DNA from: Candidatus Omnitrophota bacterium
GTDB lineage: Bacteria; Omnitrophota; Gorgyraeia; Gygaellales; Profunditerraquicolaceae
DNA length: 64,000 nucleotides
Reading direction: 5' to 3'
Assembly: GCA_049517335.1 (NCBI GenBank)
Contig: JBEKSD010000002.1
Location: 32,001-96,000 of the forward strand
How positions within the stretch are numbered: position 1 is the stretch's first letter; every line of letters begins with the position of its first letter. Shown piece by piece: positions 1 to 18,424 of this stretch. Made by a program: the position numbers and the translations under genes. A model generated the notes under the pieces. That model was not told the origin of the DNA. It worked only from the letters and a program-made list of their open reading frames with translations, and ran no database searches.

Positions 1-110
1 GCTGTGGCTTTGGCCATGCGGCAATATATACGACGGTTTTAACCCTAATCGTGCTTTTTATCTTAAGGTATGTTGAAAACATAATGTTTCTTCAGAATAA
101 AGATAAGTAG
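1..110 (+). CDS. mgtC: MgtC/SapB-family membrane protein, C-terminal fragment (5'-truncated by window)
   Basis: Frame from base 3 reads CGFGHAAIYTTVLTLIVLFILRYVENIMFLQNKDK* (TAG 108-110), resembling the last TM helix of MgtC/SapB; not in the ORF track. Confidence 0.55.
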   Translation, partial: CGFGHAAIYTTVLTLIVLFILRYVENIMFLQNKDK

Positions 111-131
111 TCTAATACAAGGAGGTGGTGT

Positions 132-635
132 ATGTCCTTTAAGAAGAAGCTGGAAGAAAAAATCCTGGATGTGGATGCTTCTATGCAAGGGTCGCTAAGT
201 TTTAAAGACCCTGTTAACTTACGCATAAACGGTAAATTTGAAGGTACGCTTGAAACCCGTGGAAATTTGACTATCGGCCCTACTGCCGTTGTAAATGCGG
301 ATATTGTCGGAGATAATATCATTGTCGGAGGCAGGATTAAAGGAAGAATAACCGCAAAAGAAAGGCTGACCCTTCTTCCTACGGCAATCGTTGACGGCGA
401 TATCTTTTCGGTACGGCTTAACATCGCTGAGGGCGCCGTATTTGAAGGAAACTGCTCCATGCTCCATGATTTGCTAAACGCTCAGGAGTTAGCGCGTTAC
501 CTTGAAGTTGATCTGAATTCGGTGATGGAATGGGTGAGTGCTGGAAAACTTCCTGGGCATAAAGAAGGCAACGACTGGAGATTTGACAGGAAAGAAGTTG
601 ACTCCTGGGTCGCCTCGGGAAAAATTGAAAGCTAA
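132..635 (+). CDS. Bactofilin (polymer-forming cytoskeletal) domain fused to a C-terminal excisionase-like HTH_17 DNA-binding domain
   Basis: Beta-helix repeats LRINGKFEG, LTIGPTAVVNADI, GAVFEGNC; C-terminal LLNAQELARYLEV...GKLPGHKEGNDWRF; GGAGG RBS. Confidence 0.85.
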   Translation: MSFKKKLEEKILDVDASMQGSLSFKDPVNLRINGKFEGTLETRGNLTIGPTAVVNADIVGDNIIVGGRIKGRITAKERLTLLPTAIVDGDIFSVRLNIAEGAVFEGNCSMLHDLLNAQELARYLEVDLNSVMEWVSAGKLPGHKEGNDWRFDRKEVDSWVASGKIES

Positions 636-653
636 AAAATAAATTAAGATTTT

Positions 654-968
654 ATGGCAGAAGAGAAACTTTTAACAGTTAGGGACGTTGCCGGAGTTTT
701 AGGCATATCGGAAAAAGAAGTAATGGAATTAGCCGAAAGCGGAGCTATTCCTGCTTACAAGGTAGGTGGAGTCTACTTAAGATTTAAGAAGGAACAAATT
801 CAGGAATTCAGGAAACTTGCAAAGCATCCTTCGGTAGTTAAGGGGCAAGTCTGGGAAAAATACAACTTGGGCGAAAAACTTAAGGATTTCCTGTACTTCA
901 ATGATTTTTATCTCATTTCAGCCCTTGTAATTATTTTCCTTCTTTTTATAATATTTCAGGGAAATTAA
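654..968 (+). CDS. Excisionase-like HTH_17 protein with C-terminal transmembrane anchor
   Basis: LLTVRDVAGVLGIS...GAIPAYKVGGVYLRF; hydrophobic tail FYLISALVIIFLLFIIF. Confidence 0.8.
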   Translation: MAEEKLLTVRDVAGVLGISEKEVMELAESGAIPAYKVGGVYLRFKKEQIQEFRKLAKHPSVVKGQVWEKYNLGEKLKDFLYFNDFYLISALVIIFLLFIIFQGN

Positions 969-973
969 CAATA

Positions 974-1642
974 ATGGCTTTAAATAAGGGGTTTTGCGAC
1001 CTTGGTTTTGCCAAGGTTGATCTGGATAGATGCAGGCGCAGAGGAATCGCCGAGGTTATTTATTGCCCGGGGAAAGACAGGAAACATCTTAAAAAAATCT
1101 GCAGCCGGTTAATAAAAAGCGGACAAAATCTTCTTTTAACCCGCCTGGACAAAAAGACCTATTTGTATCTAAAAAAATCAAACCCCCATTTAAAATATAA
1201 CATTTTAGCTAAAATCGCCTTTTTAAATAAAAAAATTGCAACATCTAAAAAGGGCTCTATACTTATCGTGTCCGCCGGCACCTCTGATCTGGCAGTGGCG
1301 GAAGAGGCAGCTGTTACGGCGCAAGTCCTTGGCAATAAGGTTAAGCGGCTTTACGATGTGGGCGTTGCCGGAGTGCATCGCCTCATCCATAATATAGGGC
1401 TGTTAAAAGAAGCTTCAGTCATCGTAGTAGTTGCGGGTATGGAAGGCGCTTTGCCGAGTATCGTAAGCGGAATGGTGGCAGTGCCCGTGGTTGCGGTCCC
1501 GACGAGCTGCGGTTACGGAGCGAATTTTGCAGGATTGTCTTCATTACTTACAATGCTAAACAGTTGTTCTCCCGGTATAGGCGTAGTCAATATTGATAAC
1601 GGATTTGGGGCTGGGTATTTAGCCGCATTAATTAATAGGTAA
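974..1642 (+). CDS. larB: Nickel-pincer cofactor biosynthesis protein LarB (PurE-like)
   Basis: AGTSD..VAEEA, DVGVAG.HR, AGMEGALPS, PTSCGYG, VVNIDNGFGA motifs. Confidence 0.92.
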   Translation: MALNKGFCDLGFAKVDLDRCRRRGIAEVIYCPGKDRKHLKKICSRLIKSGQNLLLTRLDKKTYLYLKKSNPHLKYNILAKIAFLNKKIATSKKGSILIVSAGTSDLAVAEEAAVTAQVLGNKVKRLYDVGVAGVHRLIHNIGLLKEASVIVVVAGMEGALPSIVSGMVAVPVVAVPTSCGYGANFAGLSSLLTMLNSCSPGIGVVNIDNGFGAGYLAALINR

Positions 1643-1649
1643 ATAACAA

Positions 1650-2069
1650 ATGGCTAACAAAATTTCTTTGAAAGAAGCAATTAAATTTCACGGGCATTTG
1701 GGCCCTTATCTAGTTTTGGGCCTACTCTGCGGAGATTCCGCCATAAAAAAACTTAAGGCTAATAAATATTTCGGAATAAACGTTAAAGTCTGGGGCGCAA
1801 ATAAAAAACCTCAATCCTGCCTCATTGACGGCCTGCAGCTTTCAACGGGAGCAACGTACGGTAAAGGCAATATCTCTAAATTTAACGCTAAGAAAATAAA
1901 AATTGAGGTTCTTAATAATTCCAACGGCAAAAAGGCCGCTTTTAAATTTAAGCCGGCCATAATTCAAAGGCTTAAAAGAACAAAGACACATAGGGATTCG
2001 GAAATTTTGGCAAAAAAATTATTTAAAGAAGGTCCCCGGAATATTTTTGACCTTTTGCCTGTAACCTAA
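1650..2069 (+). CDS. FmdE (formylmethanofuran dehydrogenase subunit E) family protein
   Basis: FHGHLGPYLVLG and SCLIDGLQLSTGATYGKGN motifs. Confidence 0.85.
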   Translation: MANKISLKEAIKFHGHLGPYLVLGLLCGDSAIKKLKANKYFGINVKVWGANKKPQSCLIDGLQLSTGATYGKGNISKFNAKKIKIEVLNNSNGKKAAFKFKPAIIQRLKRTKTHRDSEILAKKLFKEGPRNIFDLLPVT

Positions 2070-2091
2070 TACTCATTATTAAGGAACAACC

Positions 2092-3423
2092 ATGCCCCTC
2101 TCAGGATTGGATATTTATAAACTATTACCTAAAACCAACTGCAAGCAATGCGGATTTGCGACCTGTCTTGCTTTCGCCATGCAACTGGCCAAGAAGGCGG
2201 TCGTAATAGAAAAATGCCCTTACTTAAGTACAGAGGCAAAAAAAATCCTGGAGGATTCCGCGCAGCCGCCTATAAAATTAGTAACCATCGGTATAGGAGA
2301 AGATAAAGTGGAAGTCGGAAATGAATCAGTCGTCTTCCGTCATGAAGAGAAATTCCACAGGCCGTGCGCAGCCGGTTTTATCATCAATGACAGCCTGAGC
2401 GATGTTGAAATTTTAAATAAAGTTAAAGAAATCAATAATCTTAAGTTTGAACGCGTGGGACAAAAGCTTGAGGTTAATATAATCGCCGTTAAACAGTGCT
2501 CTGATGCAACAAGGTTTAAAGATGCGGTAAAACTCATTTCTTCCAATACCCGGCTCAATCTGGTGCTGATGAGCGAAGATTTAACCGCGTTAAAGGAAGC
2601 GACGGTATTTACAAAAGATAGAAGACCTTTAATTTATAATGCCAATAAGAATAACCTTAGCGAGGCGGTAAAGTTAGCCAAGGAATTTAACCTGCCATTA
2701 GTAGTAAAAGGCGCTGATTTAAATGAGATTTCAAATCTGACAAAGGAATTAACTGGCTTCGGGTTAAGCGAGCTCATTTTGGATACAGGGGAGAAAAACA
2801 TCAAGGATAAATTATGGGACTTCACTCAAATCAGGAGACAGGCGCTGAAAAAATCCAATCGCCTCTTAGGTTATCCCGCATTGGCTATTGTAGATAAGGC
2901 CGATCCTTATGCGGAAGCAGTTGAAGCCGCAACTTACATTGCCAAATACGCCGGCATTATCCTATTAAGGAATATCCATGCCTGGGAGGTTTTAGCGCTG
3001 CTTACCTTAAGGCAGAATATTTATACCGACCCCCAAAAACCACTACAGATTGAACCTAAGATTTACGCCGTTGGCCAGGTAAATAAAAAATCTCCTCTCT
3101 TAATCACTACGAATTTTTCACTGTCTTATTACACCGTGCTCGCTGAAGTAGAAGCAAGCAAAATCCCCTCATACATTATGAGTGTAGATACCGAAGGTAT
3201 GTCTGTTTTGACGGCGTGGGCAGCGGAAAAGTTCACGCCGGATAAAATTTCCGATTCCATTAATAAATTCGGAGTATCAGAAGTTGTGTCGCATAAAAAT
3301 TTAATTATACCCGGTTATGTCGCGGTAATGAGCGGAGATTTAGAGGAACATTCGGGTTATAAAGTTATTGTCGGGCCGAAAGAAGCTGCCGGTATTCCGT
3401 CGTTCTTAAAAAATTTACAATAA
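2092..3423 (+). CDS. acsC: Corrinoid Fe-S protein large (gamma) subunit
   Basis: LPKTNCKQCGFATCLAFA..CP [4Fe-4S] motif; LRQNIYTDPQKP; TTNFSL; SVLTAWAA. Confidence 0.96.
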   Translation: MPLSGLDIYKLLPKTNCKQCGFATCLAFAMQLAKKAVVIEKCPYLSTEAKKILEDSAQPPIKLVTIGIGEDKVEVGNESVVFRHEEKFHRPCAAGFIINDSLSDVEILNKVKEINNLKFERVGQKLEVNIIAVKQCSDATRFKDAVKLISSNTRLNLVLMSEDLTALKEATVFTKDRRPLIYNANKNNLSEAVKLAKEFNLPLVVKGADLNEISNLTKELTGFGLSELILDTGEKNIKDKLWDFTQIRRQALKKSNRLLGYPALAIVDKADPYAEAVEAATYIAKYAGIILLRNIHAWEVLALLTLRQNIYTDPQKPLQIEPKIYAVGQVNKKSPLLITTNFSLSYYTVLAEVEASKIPSYIMSVDTEGMSVLTAWAAEKFTPDKISDSINKFGVSEVVSHKNLIIPGYVAVMSGDLEEHSGYKVIVGPKEAAGIPSFLKNLQ

Positions 3424-3453
3424 ACTGCATAATAGACGCTTTAAATATAAAAT

Positions 3454-5361
3454 ATGGAAAAATTTAAGGTAACATTTCATCCTAAGAATAAAAGTATTGA
3501 GGTGCTTAAAGATACTACGATTTTATCCGCGGCTATATCCGCAGGAGTAGCTATAAATTCCGCCTGCGGCGGAGATGGAGTATGTGGGAAATGCAAGGTT
3601 CTTATAAAAAACGGAAAAGTGGTTGCTCAGGCAAATTCCGTATTGACATTAGAGGAAAAACGCCGGCAAGTTTACCTTGCCTGCCAGACCACAATTCACA
3701 GCGATTTAGAAGTTGAAGTGTTGCCTGAATCAAAATTTGATACGGCCGGCTTAAGAATTAAAGGGCTTTATACAAAATCAGAGAACGTTGAACCGGTAAG
3801 AGAGATTCCAGAAGAAAGTATTTTTAAACACTCCCCGCTTGCCACAAAATTATATCTTCAGCTTCCTAAGCCTAATTTTGAAGATACGGCCGGCGACCTT
3901 GAAAGGATTTACAGGGAGTTACGTAATATCAAGGGTTTTCCTCTCGCCCAGACCGCTCTTACCAATATACGCCAGCTGGGGGAGTTATTAAGGGATTCAG
4001 ACTGGAAGATAACCGTAACATTGGGTAGGAGAAATGACGCCATTGAAATAGTTTTGATTGAGCCGGGTGATACTACGGCTAATAATTTCGGCCTTGCTTT
4101 TGATATCGGGACAACGACTATTTCAGGACAGCTCATTGACTTAAACTCCAAAAAAATCCTTGGCACCAAGGCCAGTTATAACAAACAGGCCAGTTTTGGA
4201 AGCGACGTGATTACCCGTATAATTTACGCCCATGAGCGGGACGGCCTTGAGAAACTGCATAACGCCGTAGTTGAGACCATAAACCTGATCATTAGGGAGC
4301 TGGTAAAAGAACATAACGTAAATCTAAATGACGTAAATTGTATTTTGTGCGCGGGCAATACGACAATGATACATCTTCTCTTAAGCGTAGATCCTACTTA
4401 CATAAGAAAAGAACCTTATATCCCTACGATAAATTCCGTTCCAACTATTCGCGCGAAAGAAGCCGGAATAAATATAAACCCGCGCGCTCTTTTATCGTGC
4501 GTTCCGGGGGTTTCGAGCTATGTCGGAGGCGATACGACCGCAGGGATCTTATCAAGCTGCTTGTATAAAGAAGAGGGCTTAAGCATTTTAATTGACATAG
4601 GGACTAACGGAGAGATTGCGCTGGGGAATAAGGAATTTATGGTCGCATGCGCTGCTTCAGCAGGTCCAGCATTTGAAGGAAGCGGCATAACAAGCGGAAT
4701 GCGCGCAAGCAAAGGCGCGATAGAAAAGGTGAGGATTAGCCCTAAAACTCAAAAGGTGATTTTTGAAACCATAGGAGAAGAGAAACCCCGCGGTATCTGC
4801 GGTTCAGGTTACATTGACATAATCGGGGAATTACTTACGGCCGGAATAATTGACAAGAGCGGGAAAATCATAGTTGAAGGCAGACGCATCCGGGAAAGCG
4901 ACTTAGGAAAAGAATTCCTTATAGCGTCTAAGGAAGAATCCGCTACCGGTGGAGACATCGTAATCAATGAAGCGGACATAGATAACATCAAAAGGGCAAA
5001 AGCCGCAATATATTCCGCGGTTTCTATTCTAGTTGAACATCTAAATTTTGATTTTTCTGAAATAAAAAAAGTATTCATAGCAGGCGGATTCGGCACTTCC
5101 ATAGACATTGAAAAGGCAATCAGAATAGGATTGCTTCCGGATCTAAACAGGGACGTATTTAAATTCATCGGCAATAGCGCACTCAAAGGAGCCCAGGAAA
5201 TGCTTTTGTATTCCGATACTGAGAAAATCGCACAGGAAATTGCCAATAAAATTACCTATATTGAATTATCGGCTGACCCGGGATATATGGACCATTATAT
5301 GGCGGCCCTGTTTTTCCCGCATACTGACTTATCAAGATTCCCTTCGTTAAAGGAGAAATAA
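3454..5361 (+). CDS. Reductive activator of corrinoid protein (RACo/AcsV; 2Fe-2S plus ASKHA ATPase)
   Basis: CGGDGVCGKC ferredoxin domain; DIGTTT, G.DVITRI, DIGTNGE, GPAFEG, GICGSG. Confidence 0.92.
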   Translation: MEKFKVTFHPKNKSIEVLKDTTILSAAISAGVAINSACGGDGVCGKCKVLIKNGKVVAQANSVLTLEEKRRQVYLACQTTIHSDLEVEVLPESKFDTAGLRIKGLYTKSENVEPVREIPEESIFKHSPLATKLYLQLPKPNFEDTAGDLERIYRELRNIKGFPLAQTALTNIRQLGELLRDSDWKITVTLGRRNDAIEIVLIEPGDTTANNFGLAFDIGTTTISGQLIDLNSKKILGTKASYNKQASFGSDVITRIIYAHERDGLEKLHNAVVETINLIIRELVKEHNVNLNDVNCILCAGNTTMIHLLLSVDPTYIRKEPYIPTINSVPTIRAKEAGININPRALLSCVPGVSSYVGGDTTAGILSSCLYKEEGLSILIDIGTNGEIALGNKEFMVACAASAGPAFEGSGITSGMRASKGAIEKVRISPKTQKVIFETIGEEKPRGICGSGYIDIIGELLTAGIIDKSGKIIVEGRRIRESDLGKEFLIASKEESATGGDIVINEADIDNIKRAKAAIYSAVSILVEHLNFDFSEIKKVFIAGGFGTSIDIEKAIRIGLLPDLNRDVFKFIGNSALKGAQEMLLYSDTEKIAQEIANKITYIELSADPGYMDHYMAALFFPHTDLSRFPSLKEK

Positions 5362-6104
5362 TGGGGCGCGTTATCGCTTTTGCCGGAAAGGGCGGGACAG
5401 GAAAAACCACAACCGCGGCTTTAGTTGTGAGGATTATCAGAGAAAAGAAGTTGGGCTCGATCCTTGCAATAGATGCCGATCCAAATAACAATCTGGCTGA
5501 AATTTTGGGGCTTACGGTAAAACAAACCATCGGTTCCATTTTGGATGATGTTACCGCCTCATCCAAAAATGTCCCCGCAGGGATGACTAAAGATAGGTTT
5601 ATTGAATATGAAGTGCAGGCGGCTGTGGAAGAAGGGGACGGCTTTGATATTCTAACGATGGGCCGGCCCGAAGGCCCGGGCTGTTATTGCTACGTAAATA
5701 ACATCTTGCGTAACGTTATGAGCAACTTAATTAAAGATTATGATTATGTGATCATTGATAATGAAGCAGGCTTAGAGCACCTCTCGCGCAGGACAACAAA
5801 AAACGCGGACGCAATGATTATCGTATCTGATGCTTCCGCAATCGGGCTTAAAGCTGCCGGAAGGATAGTTGAACTTATAAAAGAATTAAAAATCCGGGTC
5901 AGGAATAATTTTTTACTTGTCAGCCGGGCCTACTCAGATATCGACAAGCAAAAAATACAAGATTTAAACCTTGAATATCTAGGATTTATCCCGCACGATA
6001 CTGAAATTGAAAAATTAAGCTTATTGGGTTTATCGTTAATGAATCTGAAGGACGATACTGTAAGCTTAAATCATTTGAGAAAACTGGGAGAAAAAATATG
6101 GTAG
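5361..6104 (+). CDS. cooC: CooC/AcsF nickel-insertion ATPase
   Basis: GKGGTGKT Walker A, DADPN, GPGCYC Ni motif, DNEAGLEHLSR. Confidence 0.92.
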   Translation: MGRVIAFAGKGGTGKTTTAALVVRIIREKKLGSILAIDADPNNNLAEILGLTVKQTIGSILDDVTASSKNVPAGMTKDRFIEYEVQAAVEEGDGFDILTMGRPEGPGCYCYVNNILRNVMSNLIKDYDYVIIDNEAGLEHLSRRTTKNADAMIIVSDASAIGLKAAGRIVELIKELKIRVRNNFLLVSRAYSDIDKQKIQDLNLEYLGFIPHDTEIEKLSLLGLSLMNLKDDTVSLNHLRKLGEKIW

Positions 6105-7036
6105 CGGAATTAATGTTGGAAAAATGGTCAGGGCAAGTTGCTACTGTGGTAATCGGCGCTACAAAAGAAGAAGGCGGGACCCGGGCGCATTCGGTCAGGG
6201 TAGGGGGGCAAAAAAGTTTACCGTTCTTATTTGCCGAAGGAGACATACCAAATAAACCGGTGATTGCTTTTGAAATCTGGGATGCCCAGCCCCTAGACTG
6301 GCCTGAACAGCTAGTTAAAGAATATGGCGACGTTTTGAAAGACCCTTTCTTATGGGCGCAGAAATGCGTAAAGGATTTTAAGGCTAGAGTTTTATGCGTG
6401 CGCCTTCAGGCTACGCACCCTGATTTCGCTAATAAAGATGCACCGGATGAGGCAAAATTCATATCAATGCTGCTTAAAAAAGTTGATGTGCCTCTTATTA
6501 TTTTGGGATGTGGCGATGACGTAAAGGATAACCAGATTTTCCCCGCAGCCAGCGAAGCAGCAAGGGGAGAACGCTGCCTGATAGGAAACGCTGTACAGGA
6601 TAATTATAAAACCTTAACCGCTGCCGTACTTGCCGATGGCCACAACATCATTGCCGAGTCGCCTATTGACATCAATATAGCAAAACAGCTGAATATTCTG
6701 ATTTCAGATATGGGGTTACCACTCGAACGCATTGTCATAAACCCGACTATTGGAGCATTAGGATACGGATTAGAATACGCTTACTCTATTATGGAGAGGG
6801 CGCGTCTTGCCGCACTTTCAGGAGACAAAACGGTCGCTTCGCCTTTTATCTGTTTTGTAGGACAAGAGGCGTGGAGGGCAAAGGAAGCAAAAGATACTTT
6901 TGAACAACAGGGAATTGTCTGGGAAGTAATTACTGCAGCTGCTTTGATTCAGGCAGGAGGCGATATTTTAGTGATGCGTCATCCCAAAGCAGCTGAAGAA
7001 GTAAATAAATACATAGAAACATTATTTAAAAAATAA
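6098..7036 (+). CDS. acsD: Corrinoid Fe-S protein small (delta) subunit
   Basis: SPIDINIAKQLN, ALGYGLEYAYSIMER, EAWRAKEA, MRHP. Confidence 0.95.
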   Translation: MVAELMLEKWSGQVATVVIGATKEEGGTRAHSVRVGGQKSLPFLFAEGDIPNKPVIAFEIWDAQPLDWPEQLVKEYGDVLKDPFLWAQKCVKDFKARVLCVRLQATHPDFANKDAPDEAKFISMLLKKVDVPLIILGCGDDVKDNQIFPAASEAARGERCLIGNAVQDNYKTLTAAVLADGHNIIAESPIDINIAKQLNILISDMGLPLERIVINPTIGALGYGLEYAYSIMERARLAALSGDKTVASPFICFVGQEAWRAKEAKDTFEQQGIVWEVITAAALIQAGGDILVMRHPKAAEEVNKYIETLFKK

Positions 7037-7048
7037 AACGGAGTTAAT

Positions 7049-7837
7049 ATGTTTATAATCGGCGAACTGATAAACGGAATGTATCAGGATATTGGGTCTG
7101 CGATTAAGAATAAGGATAAGCCCGTAATACAAAAATGCGCGCTTGCTCAGGTTAATGCCGGAGCAGATTGCCTAGATGTAAACTGCGGCCCGGCTTCAAG
7201 ACAGCCGGTATCTGATATGCCTTGGCTTGTTGAAACGATACAGGAAGTAACGGATAAGCCCTTGAGCCTCGATTCCAGCAAACCTCAGATTATTCAGGCC
7301 GGATTAAAAGTTATAAAAAATAAAGTTGTCATCAATTCAACCACTGCGGATCCGGAAAAATTGGAAATTTTAGTGCCGCTTGCCAGACAATACAACGCTA
7401 AGCTGATAGGCCTGACTATAAGCGCAAAAGGGATACCACAGAATAAAGACCAACGCCTTGAGCTGGCGGCTGCGATAGTTGCACATTGTTCGGATGCGGG
7501 CTTTCCTATTGAAGATTTATATCTTGACCCGATAGTTATGCCGGTAAATGTAGCGCAGGCGCAAATAAAGGATATTTTAGAGTCCATCCGCGAATTTAAA
7601 ATTATATCCGAACCCAGCCCCAGGACAATCGTAGGATTAAGTAATGTTTCACAGGGCACGGGGCAGAGGAATCTAATTAATAGGACATTTTTGACAATGG
7701 CAGCCGGTTTTGGCCTGGACGCCGCCATACTTGACCCGTTGGATAATAAACTTATGGACGCCCTGATAACCACAGAGCTAATTCTGAATAAAAACATTTA
7801 TTGCGATTCTTATTTAACCGCCTATAGAAAAAAATGA
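7049..7837 (+). CDS. acsE: Methyltetrahydrofolate:corrinoid Fe-S protein methyltransferase
   Basis: IIGELING, LDVN, GLSNVSQ, LINRTFL, LDAAILD; context next to acsCD. Confidence 0.93.
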   Translation: MFIIGELINGMYQDIGSAIKNKDKPVIQKCALAQVNAGADCLDVNCGPASRQPVSDMPWLVETIQEVTDKPLSLDSSKPQIIQAGLKVIKNKVVINSTTADPEKLEILVPLARQYNAKLIGLTISAKGIPQNKDQRLELAAAIVAHCSDAGFPIEDLYLDPIVMPVNVAQAQIKDILESIREFKIISEPSPRTIVGLSNVSQGTGQRNLINRTFLTMAAGFGLDAAILDPLDNKLMDALITTELILNKNIYCDSYLTAYRKK

Positions 7838-15403: not shown

Positions 15404-15466
15404 CTCAGTTGGTAGAGCAATTGTTTTGTAAACAATGGGTCGGGGGTTCGATTCCCTTCGCCGGCT
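15394..15466 (+). tRNA. tRNA-Thr(TGT), CCA not encoded
   Basis: GCCGGCG/CGCCGGC acceptor, ATTGT-TT-TGT-AA-ACAAT anticodon arm, TTCGATT T-loop. Confidence 0.95.
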
Positions 15467-15481
15467 TAATATTGACATTAC

Positions 15482-15564
15482 GGGTAGGTACCCAAGTGGC
15501 CAAAGGGGGCAGACTGTAAATCTGCTGCACTTGTGCTTCAGAGGTTCGAATCCTCTCCTGCCCA
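15482..15564 (+). tRNA. tRNA-Tyr(GTA), long variable arm
   Basis: GGGTAGG/CCTGCCC acceptor, GCAGA-CT-GTA-AA-TCTGC, TTCGAAT. Confidence 0.95.
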
Positions 15565-15644
15565 TTGAAATTTTCCGACAAGGAAAATTTCAATGGCACT
15601 GTGCGAGCGTAGCCGAGCGACAAGCGAGGCAGCGAGAACAGTGC
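15562..15644. repeat. Tandem hairpin element in the tRNA-Tyr/Gly spacer
   Basis: CCATTGAAATTTTCC/GGAAAATTTCAATGG 15-bp IR, then GCACTGT...ACAGTGC enclosing GCGAG/GAGCG-rich sequence. Confidence 0.6.
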
Positions 15645-15661
15645 ATACACCAAAATATTTT

Positions 15662-15732
15662 GCGGGAGTAGTTCAGTGGTAGAACAATAGCCTTCCAAGC
15701 TATATATGGGGGTTCGATTCCCCTCTCCCGCT
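15662..15732 (+). tRNA. tRNA-Gly(TCC)
   Basis: GCGGGAG/CTCCCGC acceptor, ATAGC-CT-TCC-AA-GCTAT, TTCGATT. Confidence 0.95.
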
Positions 15733-15786: not shown

Positions 15787-16548
15787 ATGGAAAAAGAATT
15801 TTTAGAACCTGTATTTATCGACGCTTTTGACGTAGATGACGCCTGGTTTCAGTGTTTATCGGCAATCTTGGAAAAAGGGCACGTATATACCATCACCCGC
15901 GGCAGCTATGAAGGCCAAAGGCGCCTTGAGTTTGATTTTGTGACCGTACGCATAAAAAAACCTTCCCACCAGATTATCCCCATAATACCGGAAGGAATGA
16001 GTATTCCCGCACCCACTGATATGGATTACGTTCAGGGGTATTTAAGTTATCTTTTAACCGGGACAAAGACTAACACGGAAGATTATACTTACGGCGAGAG
16101 GTTGGTTGACCCTAAAATGCGTTTTAAAGAAACTGTGGACGGCAAAGAAATGGTCAAAGAGATGCCGCTTAACGTAAATCAGGTTGAGGAAGTAATCAAG
16201 CTCTATAAAGAGAAAGGCCAAGGGACCAATCAGGCTACTATGGAAATTGGGATGCCCGGGGACATTAAATTAGTTGACCCGCCGTGCTTAAGAATCATTG
16301 ATACGCGCATCCGCTACGGCAAGCTTCACTTTATTCTCTATTTCCGTTCCTGGGATTTATGGGGAGGTTTCCCTTCTAATTTAGGAGGACTCCAGTTAGT
16401 CAAGCAGTATATGGCAGATGAGATTGGCGTTAGCGACGGAGAAATGGTGGCTGTTAGTAAGGGCTTGCATCTTTATGAATATTCATGGGATTTAGCCAAA
16501 ATGCGCACCAATAAAAATAACTTAAGTTTAAAACAACATGGAGAATAA
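15787..16548 (+). CDS. thyA: Thymidylate synthase (ThyA fold, divergent)
   Basis: YTYGER, DPPCLR catalytic Cys, FRSWD..GGFPSN, LHLY. Confidence 0.85.
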   Translation: MEKEFLEPVFIDAFDVDDAWFQCLSAILEKGHVYTITRGSYEGQRRLEFDFVTVRIKKPSHQIIPIIPEGMSIPAPTDMDYVQGYLSYLLTGTKTNTEDYTYGERLVDPKMRFKETVDGKEMVKEMPLNVNQVEEVIKLYKEKGQGTNQATMEIGMPGDIKLVDPPCLRIIDTRIRYGKLHFILYFRSWDLWGGFPSNLGGLQLVKQYMADEIGVSDGEMVAVSKGLHLYEYSWDLAKMRTNKNNLSLKQHGE

Positions 16549-16939
16549 TTATACCGGCCCTGAGCGCAGGCAATTCCCGAGAGTTGAACATGTTACTCCT
16601 CTGGCTTATAAGGTTTGCAGCAAAGAGACCGTAACTAAATTACTTCAGGGCTACACCTCTGACATAAGCCAGTCAGGCTTGTCCTGCATGCTAAAGAATA
16701 GGGTAAACGAAGATGATATTATGTGGCTTTCTTTTGACCGCGCGGTACTTTCCATATGCGAGGGAATTGATAAAAAAGTCTTTATTTATCAAAACGGCAT
16801 TATCGCGAAAGTCTCAAGGGTTGAGGCCTCCGAAGATGATTCTTATGAGGTAGGAGTGCAATTTATTCTGCGAGAAGAAAAGAACGTATCATATATTTAT
16901 CCCAGCGTCTATTTTTTAGGACAGAAATCAAATGAATAA
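16538..16939 (+). CDS. PilZ-domain protein (c-di-GMP receptor)
   Basis: ERRQFPR (RxxxR) and DISQSG (DxSxxG). Confidence 0.85.
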   Translation: MENNYTGPERRQFPRVEHVTPLAYKVCSKETVTKLLQGYTSDISQSGLSCMLKNRVNEDDIMWLSFDRAVLSICEGIDKKVFIYQNGIIAKVSRVEASEDDSYEVGVQFILREEKNVSYIYPSVYFLGQKSNE

Positions 16940-17965: not shown

Positions 17966-18043
17966 CGGGGCGTGGCTCAGCTTGGCTAGAGCGCTTGAAT
18001 GGGGTTCAAGAGGTCACAGGTTCAAGTCCTGTCGCCCCGACCA
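17966..18043 (+). tRNA. tRNA-Pro(GGG), encoded CCA
   Basis: CGGGGCG/CGCCCCG-A-CCA, CTTGA-AT-GGG-GT-TCAAG. Confidence 0.95.
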
Positions 18044-18067
18044 AATTTTTTAGAAGGAGGGTTAAAG

Positions 18068-18424
18068 ATGGCATATACCGGTCCTGAAAGACGAAAGCAT
18101 CAACGCATAAGTGGCCGTTTTATCGTATCATACCGTATCATTGACCCGGACGACGTAAGAGATGTTTCCCAGACAAAAAATATCAGCGTCGGCGGAATGC
18201 TTCTTACGACAAACAGGCATTTTGATGTAGGCACGAACCTTGCTTTAGAAATCAGGCTTCCCTTTGACCCGCACCCGATAATGATTATCGCAAAAGTGGC
18301 AGAGTCTCATGAAATCACCAAAAATATAATTTACGATACCCGGCTTATCTTTCTGGCGGTAGATGAGAGACATAGGAAAGTAATACAGGAAACTATAAAT
18401 TACTATTCAAAGAAAGGGCATTAA
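18068..18424 (+). CDS. PilZ-domain protein
   Basis: MAYTGPERRKHQR, NISVGG; GGAGG RBS before ATG 18068 (track start 17999 lies inside the tRNA). Confidence 0.85.
   Translation: MAYTGPERRKHQRISGRFIVSYRIIDPDDVRDVSQTKNISVGGMLLTTNRHFDVGTNLALEIRLPFDPHPIMIIAKVAESHEITKNIIYDTRLIFLAVDERHRKVIQETINYYSKKGH

Follow-up and report, generated by a model that had tools for sequence, protein, structure and literature searches.

Known bactofilins recruit client proteins through short or disordered tails. The only variants of the family mentioned in the literature searched carry an N-terminal transmembrane segment (PMC12448750). In Bacillus subtilis, the bactofilins BacE and BacF are encoded together with BacR (YhbD, DUF4004), a helix-turn-helix (HTH) protein that they bind and that is held at the membrane (PMC13649987). 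In Myxococcus, the bactofilin scaffold BacNOP organizes DNA-bound complexes through the PadC and ParABS proteins, PadC binding the C-terminal region of BacP and being encoded directly 3′ of the bactofilin genes (PMC5703909). Outside the bactofilins, RodZ is described as a bitopic membrane protein whose cytoplasmic HTH binds the cytoskeletal polymer MreB, not DNA (PMC6052060). Among small winged-helix proteins with a MerR-like fold, BldC assembles head-to-tail into an oligomer and RacA is cited as an architectural DNA-binding protein (PMC5859096). Here we analyze a 64,000-nucleotide (nt) stretch of DNA from a Candidatus Omnitrophota bacterium (assembly GCA_049517335.1, contig JBEKSD010000002.1, positions 32,001 to 96,000 of the forward strand; this whole stretch is referred to as the window), which encodes, close to its start, a bactofilin fused to an excisionase-type winged helix (gene 1), followed by a small winged-helix protein with a C-terminal transmembrane helix (gene 2).

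The module pairs a bactofilin that has a folded client domain built into it with a matching partner anchored in the membrane, and it is conserved across a phylum without cultured members. No published description of a bactofilin-HTH or bactofilin-excisionase fusion was found in the literature searched, papers with both bactofilin and HTH being judged by their titles and the opening of their abstracts, and subscription papers and supplements lying outside that search. Where known bactofilins recruit clients via their tails, gene 1 carries a client-type domain in every subunit. We tentatively interpret the module as a membrane-bound bactofilin scaffold whose winged helices serve as protein-docking modules, a reading that we regard as plausible rather than probable. 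The parts of the module are as follows:

119..127, + strand: ribosome-binding site of gene 1, AAGGAGGTG, read from the sequence
132..635, + strand: gene 1, open reading frame (ORF) of 167 amino acids (aa), ATG start
132..161, + strand: gene 1 residues 1-10, membrane-targeting-like N-terminus (MSFKKK...), from an N-terminal comparison of 73 sequences
162..461, + strand: gene 1 residues 11-110, bactofilin beta-helix, from PF04519, the structural model and the fold match
462..635, + strand: gene 1 residues 111-167 and stop, winged helix of HTH_17/excisionase type, from PF12728, the structural model and fold matches
636..653, + strand: AT-rich intergenic spacer of 18 nt between gene 1 and gene 2, from the sequence
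654..968, + strand: gene 2, ORF of 104 aa, ATG start
654..821, + strand: gene 2 residues 1-56, winged helix (HTH_17) whose second helix is acidic, from Pfam and the structural model
822..884, + strand: gene 2 residues 57-77, disordered spacer, from model confidence and alignment
885..911, + strand: gene 2 residues 78-86, juxtamembrane motif DFxYFNDFY, from a 31-sequence alignment
906..968, + strand: gene 2 residues 85-104 and stop, C-terminal transmembrane helix with a tail of 2-3 residues, from hydropathy and the structural model

The original prediction, made from the DNA sequence alone, had described gene 1 as a bactofilin beta-helix fused to an excisionase-type HTH, and profile searches bear this out. 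Residues 11-108 match the bactofilin family PF04519 (E 1.9e-25, 89.4 bits against a cut-off of 27.9, covering profile positions 2-97 of 98), residues 114-163 match HTH_17 (PF12728; E 7.5e-13, 49.0 bits against a cut-off of 27), and the NCBIfam model TIGR01764 'excise' is matched at 38.3 bits against a cut-off of 28.8. The same residues 11-108 align with solved bactofilins, namely BacA (2n3d, E 1.8e-8) and the Thermus protein (6ria, E 1.6e-7). An AlphaFold2 (AF2) model of gene 1 was computed from a 55-sequence alignment, with a mean predicted local distance difference test score (pLDDT) of 87.0 and a predicted template modeling score (pTM) of 0.65. In this model the beta-helix occupies residues 11-110 with pLDDT values of 86-98, residues 1-7 fall below 50, and the winged helix is composed of a strand (114-116), two helices (117-124 and 128-136), a wing (143-152) and a last helix (153-161). 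BacA 2n3d was the top hit of the fold search (target TM-score 0.84, root-mean-square deviation 2.1 over 103 columns); no match of this search was at E ≤ 0.001, the Foldseek E-value for 2n3d being only 3.2e-3 because the gene-1 query carries a second domain. Fold matches to the C-terminal domain comprise the excisionase RdfS, BldC (33-35% identity), the Xis of Pukovnik, small-terminase DNA-binding domains, CbpM and RacA.

Gene 1 shares with the canonical bactofilins of Caulobacter (BacA) and Thermus thermophilus a beta-helix recognizable by sequence and by fold and a hydrophobic residue of the end-to-end polymerization interface, and its lysine-rich N-terminus resembles their membrane-targeting sequence. 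The interface residue is F104, which matches, by alignment only, F130 of BacA and F105 of the Thermus protein; among 73 sequences its column is occupied by F (36), L (35) or M (2). Exchange of this residue in BacA (F130R) abolishes polymers (PMC12448750), and the title of PDB entry 6ria names the F105R mutant. Judging from these residues, gene 1 is expected to polymerize through its beta-helix. Its N-terminus bears a net charge of +1 to +2 in all 73 sequences, and each of the 12 commonest variants listed begins with M-[AS]-F and continues with a stretch rich in Lys/Arg; the likeness to the global bactofilin membrane-targeting consensus MFSKKKK (PMC12448750) is a resemblance only, with one extra residue ahead of the Phe. 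Through this lysine-rich segment gene 1 would bind the cytoplasmic face of the membrane.

Gene 1 departs from the canonical bactofilins after the beta-helix, where the short or disordered tail gives way to a folded winged helix attached through a conserved junction. The junction reads C-x-M-L-H-D, in which C, M, L and D are invariant and His occurs in 67 of the 73 sequences, and in this lineage the two domains are joined without a flexible linker; more distant members have up to ~20 extra residues at this point. The beta-helix displays a conserved basic stripe (R68, K70, R72, K76 and R78), and the winged helix has a net charge of -1 to -5 in 73/73 sequences. A close relative of the gene-1 bactofilin subtype (P0273) has a C-terminal PilZ domain instead of the winged helix, an architecture suggesting that the beta-helix is a carrier for exchangeable C-terminal modules. 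Two small PilZ proteins are encoded elsewhere in the window (16538-16936 and 17999-18421).

For gene 2, the expectation of a second HTH of the same type, 18 nt downstream and followed by a C-terminal membrane helix, was likewise confirmed. Residues 6-52 match HTH_17 (PF12728; E 1.9e-10, 41.3 bits against a cut-off of 27), and TIGR01764 'excise' is matched at 37.2 bits against a cut-off of 28.8. The AF2 model (mean pLDDT 73.6) contains a winged helix at residues 6-56, a disordered segment at 58-68 (pLDDT below 50), a short helix at 72-82 and a long helix at 84-102. The best fold match is the DNA-binding domain of RacA (5i44, E 3.3e-3), followed by HiNmlR of the MerR family, BldC and the Pukovnik Xis. 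In the AF2 models both winged helices of the module show the same MerR-like topology of a short strand, two helices, a two-strand wing and a third helix, and their sequences are 28% identical (E 1e-7 for the pair). In gene 2, the helix at residues 19-30 carries a mean net charge of -2.5, ranging from -4 to -1 over 71 sequences.

Between the winged helix and the membrane, gene 2 has a spacer that is 20 residues long in 57 of 71 sequences (range 17-22) at a mean pairwise identity of 0.19, and this constant length despite 19% identity points to a probable geometric constraint. The spacer leads into the juxtamembrane motif DFxYFNDFY, seven of whose nine positions (D78, F79, F82, N83, D84, F85 and Y86) do not vary, while Y81 hardly does. 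Over residues 85-101 the Kyte-Doolittle hydropathy averages 3.11, with three residues beyond them, and a hydrophobic C-terminal segment is present in 71/71 members of the gene-2 family (minimum hydropathy 2.37), always with two to three residues beyond. With so little sequence past the hydrophobic segment, gene 2 is predicted to be tail-anchored, with its winged helix in the cytoplasm.

Both genes belong to large families of real proteins. Gene 1 has 2969 homologs at E ≤ 1e-3 among 3018 candidates, and gene 2 has 1250 among 1256 at the same threshold; these numbers indicate that neither is a chance ORF. The 120 gene-1 homologs listed are 76-100% identical and 166-181 aa long, and the 120 listed for gene 2 are 58-100% identical and 95-120 aa long. 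All 120 of the former carry both Pfam domains; the fusion is conserved, and its lack of conservation would have spoken against the original prediction. The nearest named relatives of both proteins come from Candidatus Omnitrophota, and in the Atlas this is the commonest phylum for both families, a phylum being known for few members. In a library of representatives at 50% identity, gene 1 is matched by 12852 proteins at E ≤ 1e-3 and by no more than 21 at E ≤ 1e-30; full-length matches that keep the fusion, at 37-55% identity, come from about 20 representatives, and the names found for these distant fusion clusters were limited to 'PVC group bacterium' and 'excisionase family DNA binding protein'. 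The 'bactofilin-only' close relatives in this library (P0261-P0289) were not counted as evidence for loss of the fusion: several of the eight that were read end in low-complexity, frameshift-like or chimera-like sequence, and the library looks likely to overstate the absence of the winged helix.

A pattern search of species-representative genomes gave 567 stretches, of which 537 encode a gene-1 relative, and the locus-level counts below refer to the best 80 of these 537, all of them 70-81% identical in gene 1. The fusion is complete in 80/80 loci, the match covering query residues 1-162 or more in 79 and residues 4-166 in the remaining one (L052). A gene-2 relative lies directly 3′ of gene 1 on the same strand in 79/80 loci, which is 79/79 of those with room downstream, the sole unpaired locus (L055) ending 89 nt past gene 1. 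The adjacency described in the original prediction is therefore conserved, with the caveat that the 80 loci share one colinear block. The distance between the two genes, counted from the end of the gene-1 match, ranges from 9 to 184 nt across related loci, and a terminator scan found no terminator-like site between the module genes. Gene 1 is preceded by mgtC in 72/80 loci and gene 2 is followed by larB in 72/80. The flanking genes in the window are:

3..110, + strand: 3′ end of an MgtC-family membrane-protein gene, truncated by the window start; the frame-3 translation shows a hydrophobic segment and a stop at 108-110
974..1642, + strand: larB, the next same-strand gene, identified by NCBIfam NF033503 (LarB, 283 bits against a cut-off of 175)

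Several records within this set, among them L005, L006, L011, L012 and L069, are titled 'uncultured Planctomycetales', 'Margulisiibacteriota' or 'Pacebacteria' while containing the same block, with gene 1 at 73-80% identity; these titles probably reflect labeling or binning issues rather than a wider range.

The conservation of gene 1 is high within its own neighborhood. In the 35 loci that contain all eight families compared, gene 1 ranks first by mean pairwise identity (0.79), ahead of MgtC (0.74), LarB (0.705), CdhD (0.67), the S41 peptidase (0.65), TsaD (0.65), gene 2 (0.58) and the PF04748 protein (0.54). Within gene 1 the two domains are under equal constraint (beta-helix 0.80, winged helix 0.78), and in gene 2 the values are 0.70 for the winged helix, 0.19 for the spacer and 0.62 for the membrane part. 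That a protein as small as gene 1 exceeds TsaD in conservation points to a putative core function, and its place at the top of its neighborhood across the phylum hints at a central part in the cell biology of Omnitrophota.

The function of the winged helices depends on whether they retain the residues by which their structural relatives contact DNA. In BldC, Lys26 and Arg30 contact bases, Thr27, Thr29, Trp31 and Lys33 contact phosphates, and His46, Arg47 and Arg48 belong to the wing; RacA uses an arginine equivalent to BldC Arg30 (PMC5859096). Gene 1 was mapped onto the BldC chains by sequence alignment (E 0.21) and fold matches, and gene 2 was mapped via gene 1; subtracting three from the BldC chain numbering reproduces all residues named in that source (PMC5859096). 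The equivalent positions, counted in 73 gene-1 and 71 gene-2 sequences, are occupied as follows:

BldC Lys26 position: gene 1, Asn/Ser in 65/73; gene 2, Lys/Arg in 71/71
BldC Thr27 position: gene 1, Ser in 72/73; gene 2, Glu/Asp in 68/71
BldC Arg30 position: gene 1, Glu/Asp in 73/73; gene 2, Asp/Glu in 61/71 (Asn in 8, Gly in 2)
BldC Trp31 position: gene 1, Trp (W134) in all; gene 2, Leu in all
BldC Lys33 position: gene 1, Asn/Ser in 70/73; gene 2, Glu in 63 and Gln in 8 of 71
BldC His46 position: gene 1, Asp/Glu in 53/73; gene 2, Val/Leu in 68/71
BldC Arg47 position: gene 1, Trp in 73/73; gene 2, Tyr/Phe in 71/71
BldC Arg48 position: gene 1, Lys/Arg in all; gene 2, Arg in all

The DNA-facing helix of gene 2 additionally holds three to four conserved acidic residues. 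Sequence-specific reading of the major groove in the manner of BldC or RacA is unlikely on these grounds, and clearly so for gene 2, and the co-assembly of the two winged helices on DNA appears doubtful. The positions that form the head-to-tail interface of BldC are still hydrophobic in both proteins (L124, V126 and W134 in gene 1; L16, I18 and L26 in gene 2). Three proteins (P0351, P0299 and P0357) consist of 2, 3 and 7 HTH_17 winged helices in tandem, respectively, all related to that of gene 1, which suggests that multivalency may matter for this domain type.

Gene 1 belongs to the bactofilin family and both proteins carry genuine HTH_17 domains; the module otherwise resembles the systems introduced above in part, and its proteins fall outside the BldC, MADS1, MamR, DUF4004 and RodZ families. 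It is like BacR in linking an HTH protein genetically to bactofilins; it differs in that BacR is a separate soluble protein of ~210 aa from the PF13171 family, whereas the winged helices of the module are fused to a bactofilin or anchored in the membrane. BacR furthermore binds DNA in vitro (PMC13649987), which for the module seems doubtful. Assignment to BacR/DUF4004 was rejected, PF13171 being absent from the Pfam matches of both proteins at E up to 0.1. In the Myxococcus system the link to DNA is indirect, running via PadC with its ParB-like domain, ParA and ParB (PMC5703909), and the module is without a ParB-like domain. RodZ offers a parallel for a membrane-anchored HTH that binds a polymer; it differs in its large periplasmic domain (PMC6052060) and in its actin-like partner MreB, gene 2 being of excisionase type with essentially no periplasmic part. 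A classification of gene 2 as RodZ was rejected on its HTH_17 rather than XRE-type domain and on the three residues past its membrane helix, the topology alone being similar. The HTH of RodZ is of the XRE type, and a co-crystal structure of RodZ with MreB reportedly exists.

With BldC, Xis, RdfS and RacA the module shares the small MerR-like winged-helix fold (target TM-scores 0.44-0.78 for gene 1 and 0.59-0.83 for gene 2); most of the base and phosphate contacts of BldC have given way to other residues, often acidic ones, and a coiled coil like that of RacA is missing. Membership of the BldC family (NF033787) was rejected at 20.5 and 16.8 bits for gene 1 and gene 2, respectively, against a cut-off of 77, with R30, K33, H46 and R47 replaced in both proteins. 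The MADS1 defense family (NF047737, mad1 of PADLOC) was also rejected: the scores are 53.4 and 39.2 bits against 80, the PADLOC matches cover the winged helix only, and the neighbors are housekeeping genes. A reading as the magnetosome protein MamR (NF040990) was rejected too, gene 2 scoring 19.5 bits against a cut-off of 100 and no magnetosome genes being found in the window.

In the reading that we tentatively prefer, this Omnitrophota-wide two-gene module would build a bactofilin scaffold attached to the membrane. The gene 1 polymer would lie on the cytoplasmic face of the membrane and present one rigidly fixed winged helix of excisionase/BldC type per subunit, and the tail-anchored gene 2, by means of its 20-residue spacer, would keep another such winged helix a set distance away from the membrane. 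The winged helices would have been re-purposed to bind each other, the filament surface or the basic face of the beta-helix, and binding of gene 2 would anchor, nucleate or pattern the filament on the membrane, much as the HTH of RodZ binds MreB and BacR is held by BacE and BacF. The proteins of gene 1 and gene 2 would interact in this reading. The loss of the DNA-reading residues at the Arg30 and Lys33 positions of both proteins and at the Thr27 position of gene 2, together with the negative charge of the gene-1 domain, favors docking. There are precedents for protein binding by this domain class: TorI, an excisionase-class winged helix, binds TorR, IntS and DnaJ (PMC3509656), and CbpM, a protein-binding winged helix of the same class, is among the fold matches in complex with the J-domain of CbpA (PDB 3ucs). 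By analogy with these and with the binding of PadC to the C-terminal region of BacP, which shows that such extensions of bactofilins can be client sites, and considering the hydrophobic positions at the BldC-type interface and the constant spacer length of gene 2, a docking role is suggested; if it is true, an excisionase-type winged helix has been re-purposed as a cytoskeletal docking module.

Several observations weigh against docking or against the coupling of the two genes. The mapping onto BldC is a weak sequence alignment (E 0.21) backed by fold matches, with no solved complex, and the Arg22-Glu16′ salt bridge of the BldC oligomer is not kept. Furthermore, the great majority of HTH_17 proteins bind DNA, DNA-bound proteins head the fold matches of the module, and conserved basic residues remain in or beside the wings (K144, R150, R153 and K154 in gene 1; K36, R43 and K45 in gene 2), where they could hold the DNA backbone. 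The latter three points speak for a tether between DNA, cytoskeleton and membrane, as put forward in the original prediction, in which the many weak winged helices of the filament would grip the nucleoid non-specifically or at AT-rich DNA, mainly via their basic wings, while gene 2 adds membrane-fixed copies and the nucleoid or the origin region is anchored to the envelope, comparable to RacA-DivIVA or BacNOP-PadC-ParB. RacA anchors DNA to a polar scaffold, and Xis, like BldC (PMC5859096), oligomerizes head-to-tail on DNA. RacA and BldC are both among the top fold matches, W134 of gene 1, equivalent to the phosphate-contacting Trp31 of BldC, is invariant, gene 2 keeps a basic residue at the Lys26 position throughout, and the multivalency implied by the tandem winged-helix arrays is what a polymer would provide. 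Set against this, the base-reading arginine has become acidic in every gene-1 sequence and most gene-2 sequences, the DNA-facing helix of gene 2 is acidic, the gene-1 winged helix is net negative throughout, no repeated DNA motif was found near the module, and no partition genes were seen nearby, the only ParA-like match (5361-6101) lying inside the acetyl-CoA synthase cluster and being CooC-like. Of the tether proposal, the domains, the fusion, the adjacency and a plausible location at the inner face of the membrane therefore stand, and the DNA-reading residues of BldC do not; we regard it as possible, if rather unlikely. A direct, nucleotide-independent link from nucleoid to filament to membrane, made by the winged-helix array of the polymer and the membrane-anchored copies in very small cells, is on balance doubtful. 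If the tether is true, the filament is linked to DNA directly, and such a link would constitute a minimal device for chromosome anchoring or segregation that needs no ParABS adaptor and works by multivalent, sequence-tolerant contacts of basic wings.

The remaining objections concern the pairing itself and bear on the possibility that the two genes function independently, their adjacency being inherited gene order, so that gene 1 would be a bactofilin equipped with a client domain for itself and gene 2 a small membrane protein apart from it. The 80 loci are colinear over more than 8 kb (for example L002:145-8498; window 1-5361) in a same-strand array of gatB, the S41 peptidase, the PF04748 deacetylase, tsaD, mgtC, gene 1, gene 2, larB, the fmdE-like gene, cdhD and RACo, genes mostly unrelated in role, so the adjacency of the pair could be inherited order and is weak evidence of coupling. 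The correlation of evolutionary distances between gene 1 and gene 2 (r 0.78) shows no excess over that of unrelated neighbors (0.71-0.83), and mutual information over 65 pairs revealed no special co-variation, although both measures are dominated by shared ancestry and are uninformative either way. A fused gene 1-gene 2 protein was not found among 179 longer candidates (0/179), which is weak evidence. Independence is nonetheless unlikely, as the same uncommon domain type occurs in two adjoining proteins, an unusual acidic residue replaces Arg30 in each of them, the predicted location of both is the membrane surface, and the Atlas reports both families from Omnitrophota only, with the phylum known for few members. 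The pair also outlasts three losses of flanking genes, remaining intact where larB is lost in one clade and where mgtC is lost at two positions of the tree, which is mild support for a real pair. Very unlikely, in turn, is a regulatory switch of the BacR type, with one or both winged helices acting as transcription factors whose access to DNA is set by sequestration at the filament or membrane, coupling gene expression to the state of the envelope or scaffold. It has a precedent in BacR, which loses DNA binding when bound by BacE and BacF (PMC13649987), and factor-like domains are here covalently tied to filament and membrane; a domain bound in this manner, however, could be set free only by proteolysis, the residues for reading DNA are lost, DUF4004 is not detected, and the module is internal to an operon, starting ~21 nt after mgtC, where no operator-like DNA is conserved.

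The sequence upstream of gene 1 was compared across the related loci. The end of the frame-3 translation in the window aligns with the end of the MgtC-family gene (PF02308) of these loci, and 21 nt separate the mgtC stop from the start of gene 1. The median length of this spacer is ~18 nt, measurable in 45 of the 72 loci with MgtC, and leaves no room for a conserved operator. In the spacer alignment of related loci the gene-1 ribosome-binding site is the sole conserved element, and no conserved operator or repeated DNA motif was found near the module. Within the window, no second copy of either module domain occurs among 751 six-frame ORFs.

Downstream of the module, larB, a gene of nickel-pincer cofactor synthesis, is followed on the same strand by the FmdE-like gene and then by the acetyl-CoA synthase/CO dehydrogenase cluster, which includes cdhD, RACo and a CooC-like ATPase. 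The larB and FmdE-like genes (974-2069) directly precede the nickel-dependent acetyl-CoA synthase/CO dehydrogenase genes (2092-7834), and neither larC nor larE was seen in the window. Over the full window (1-64000), 57 of 59 non-overlapping ORFs of at least 80 aa and all six tRNA genes lie on the + strand, an extreme strand bias across 64 kb of housekeeping genes. The predicted PilZ ORF at 17999-18421 shares its first 45 bases with the tRNA-Pro gene (17966-18043), and its true start is for this reason probably further downstream. A minus-strand ORF (15408-15698) overlaps a tRNA-Thr/Tyr/Gly cluster and is probably spurious.

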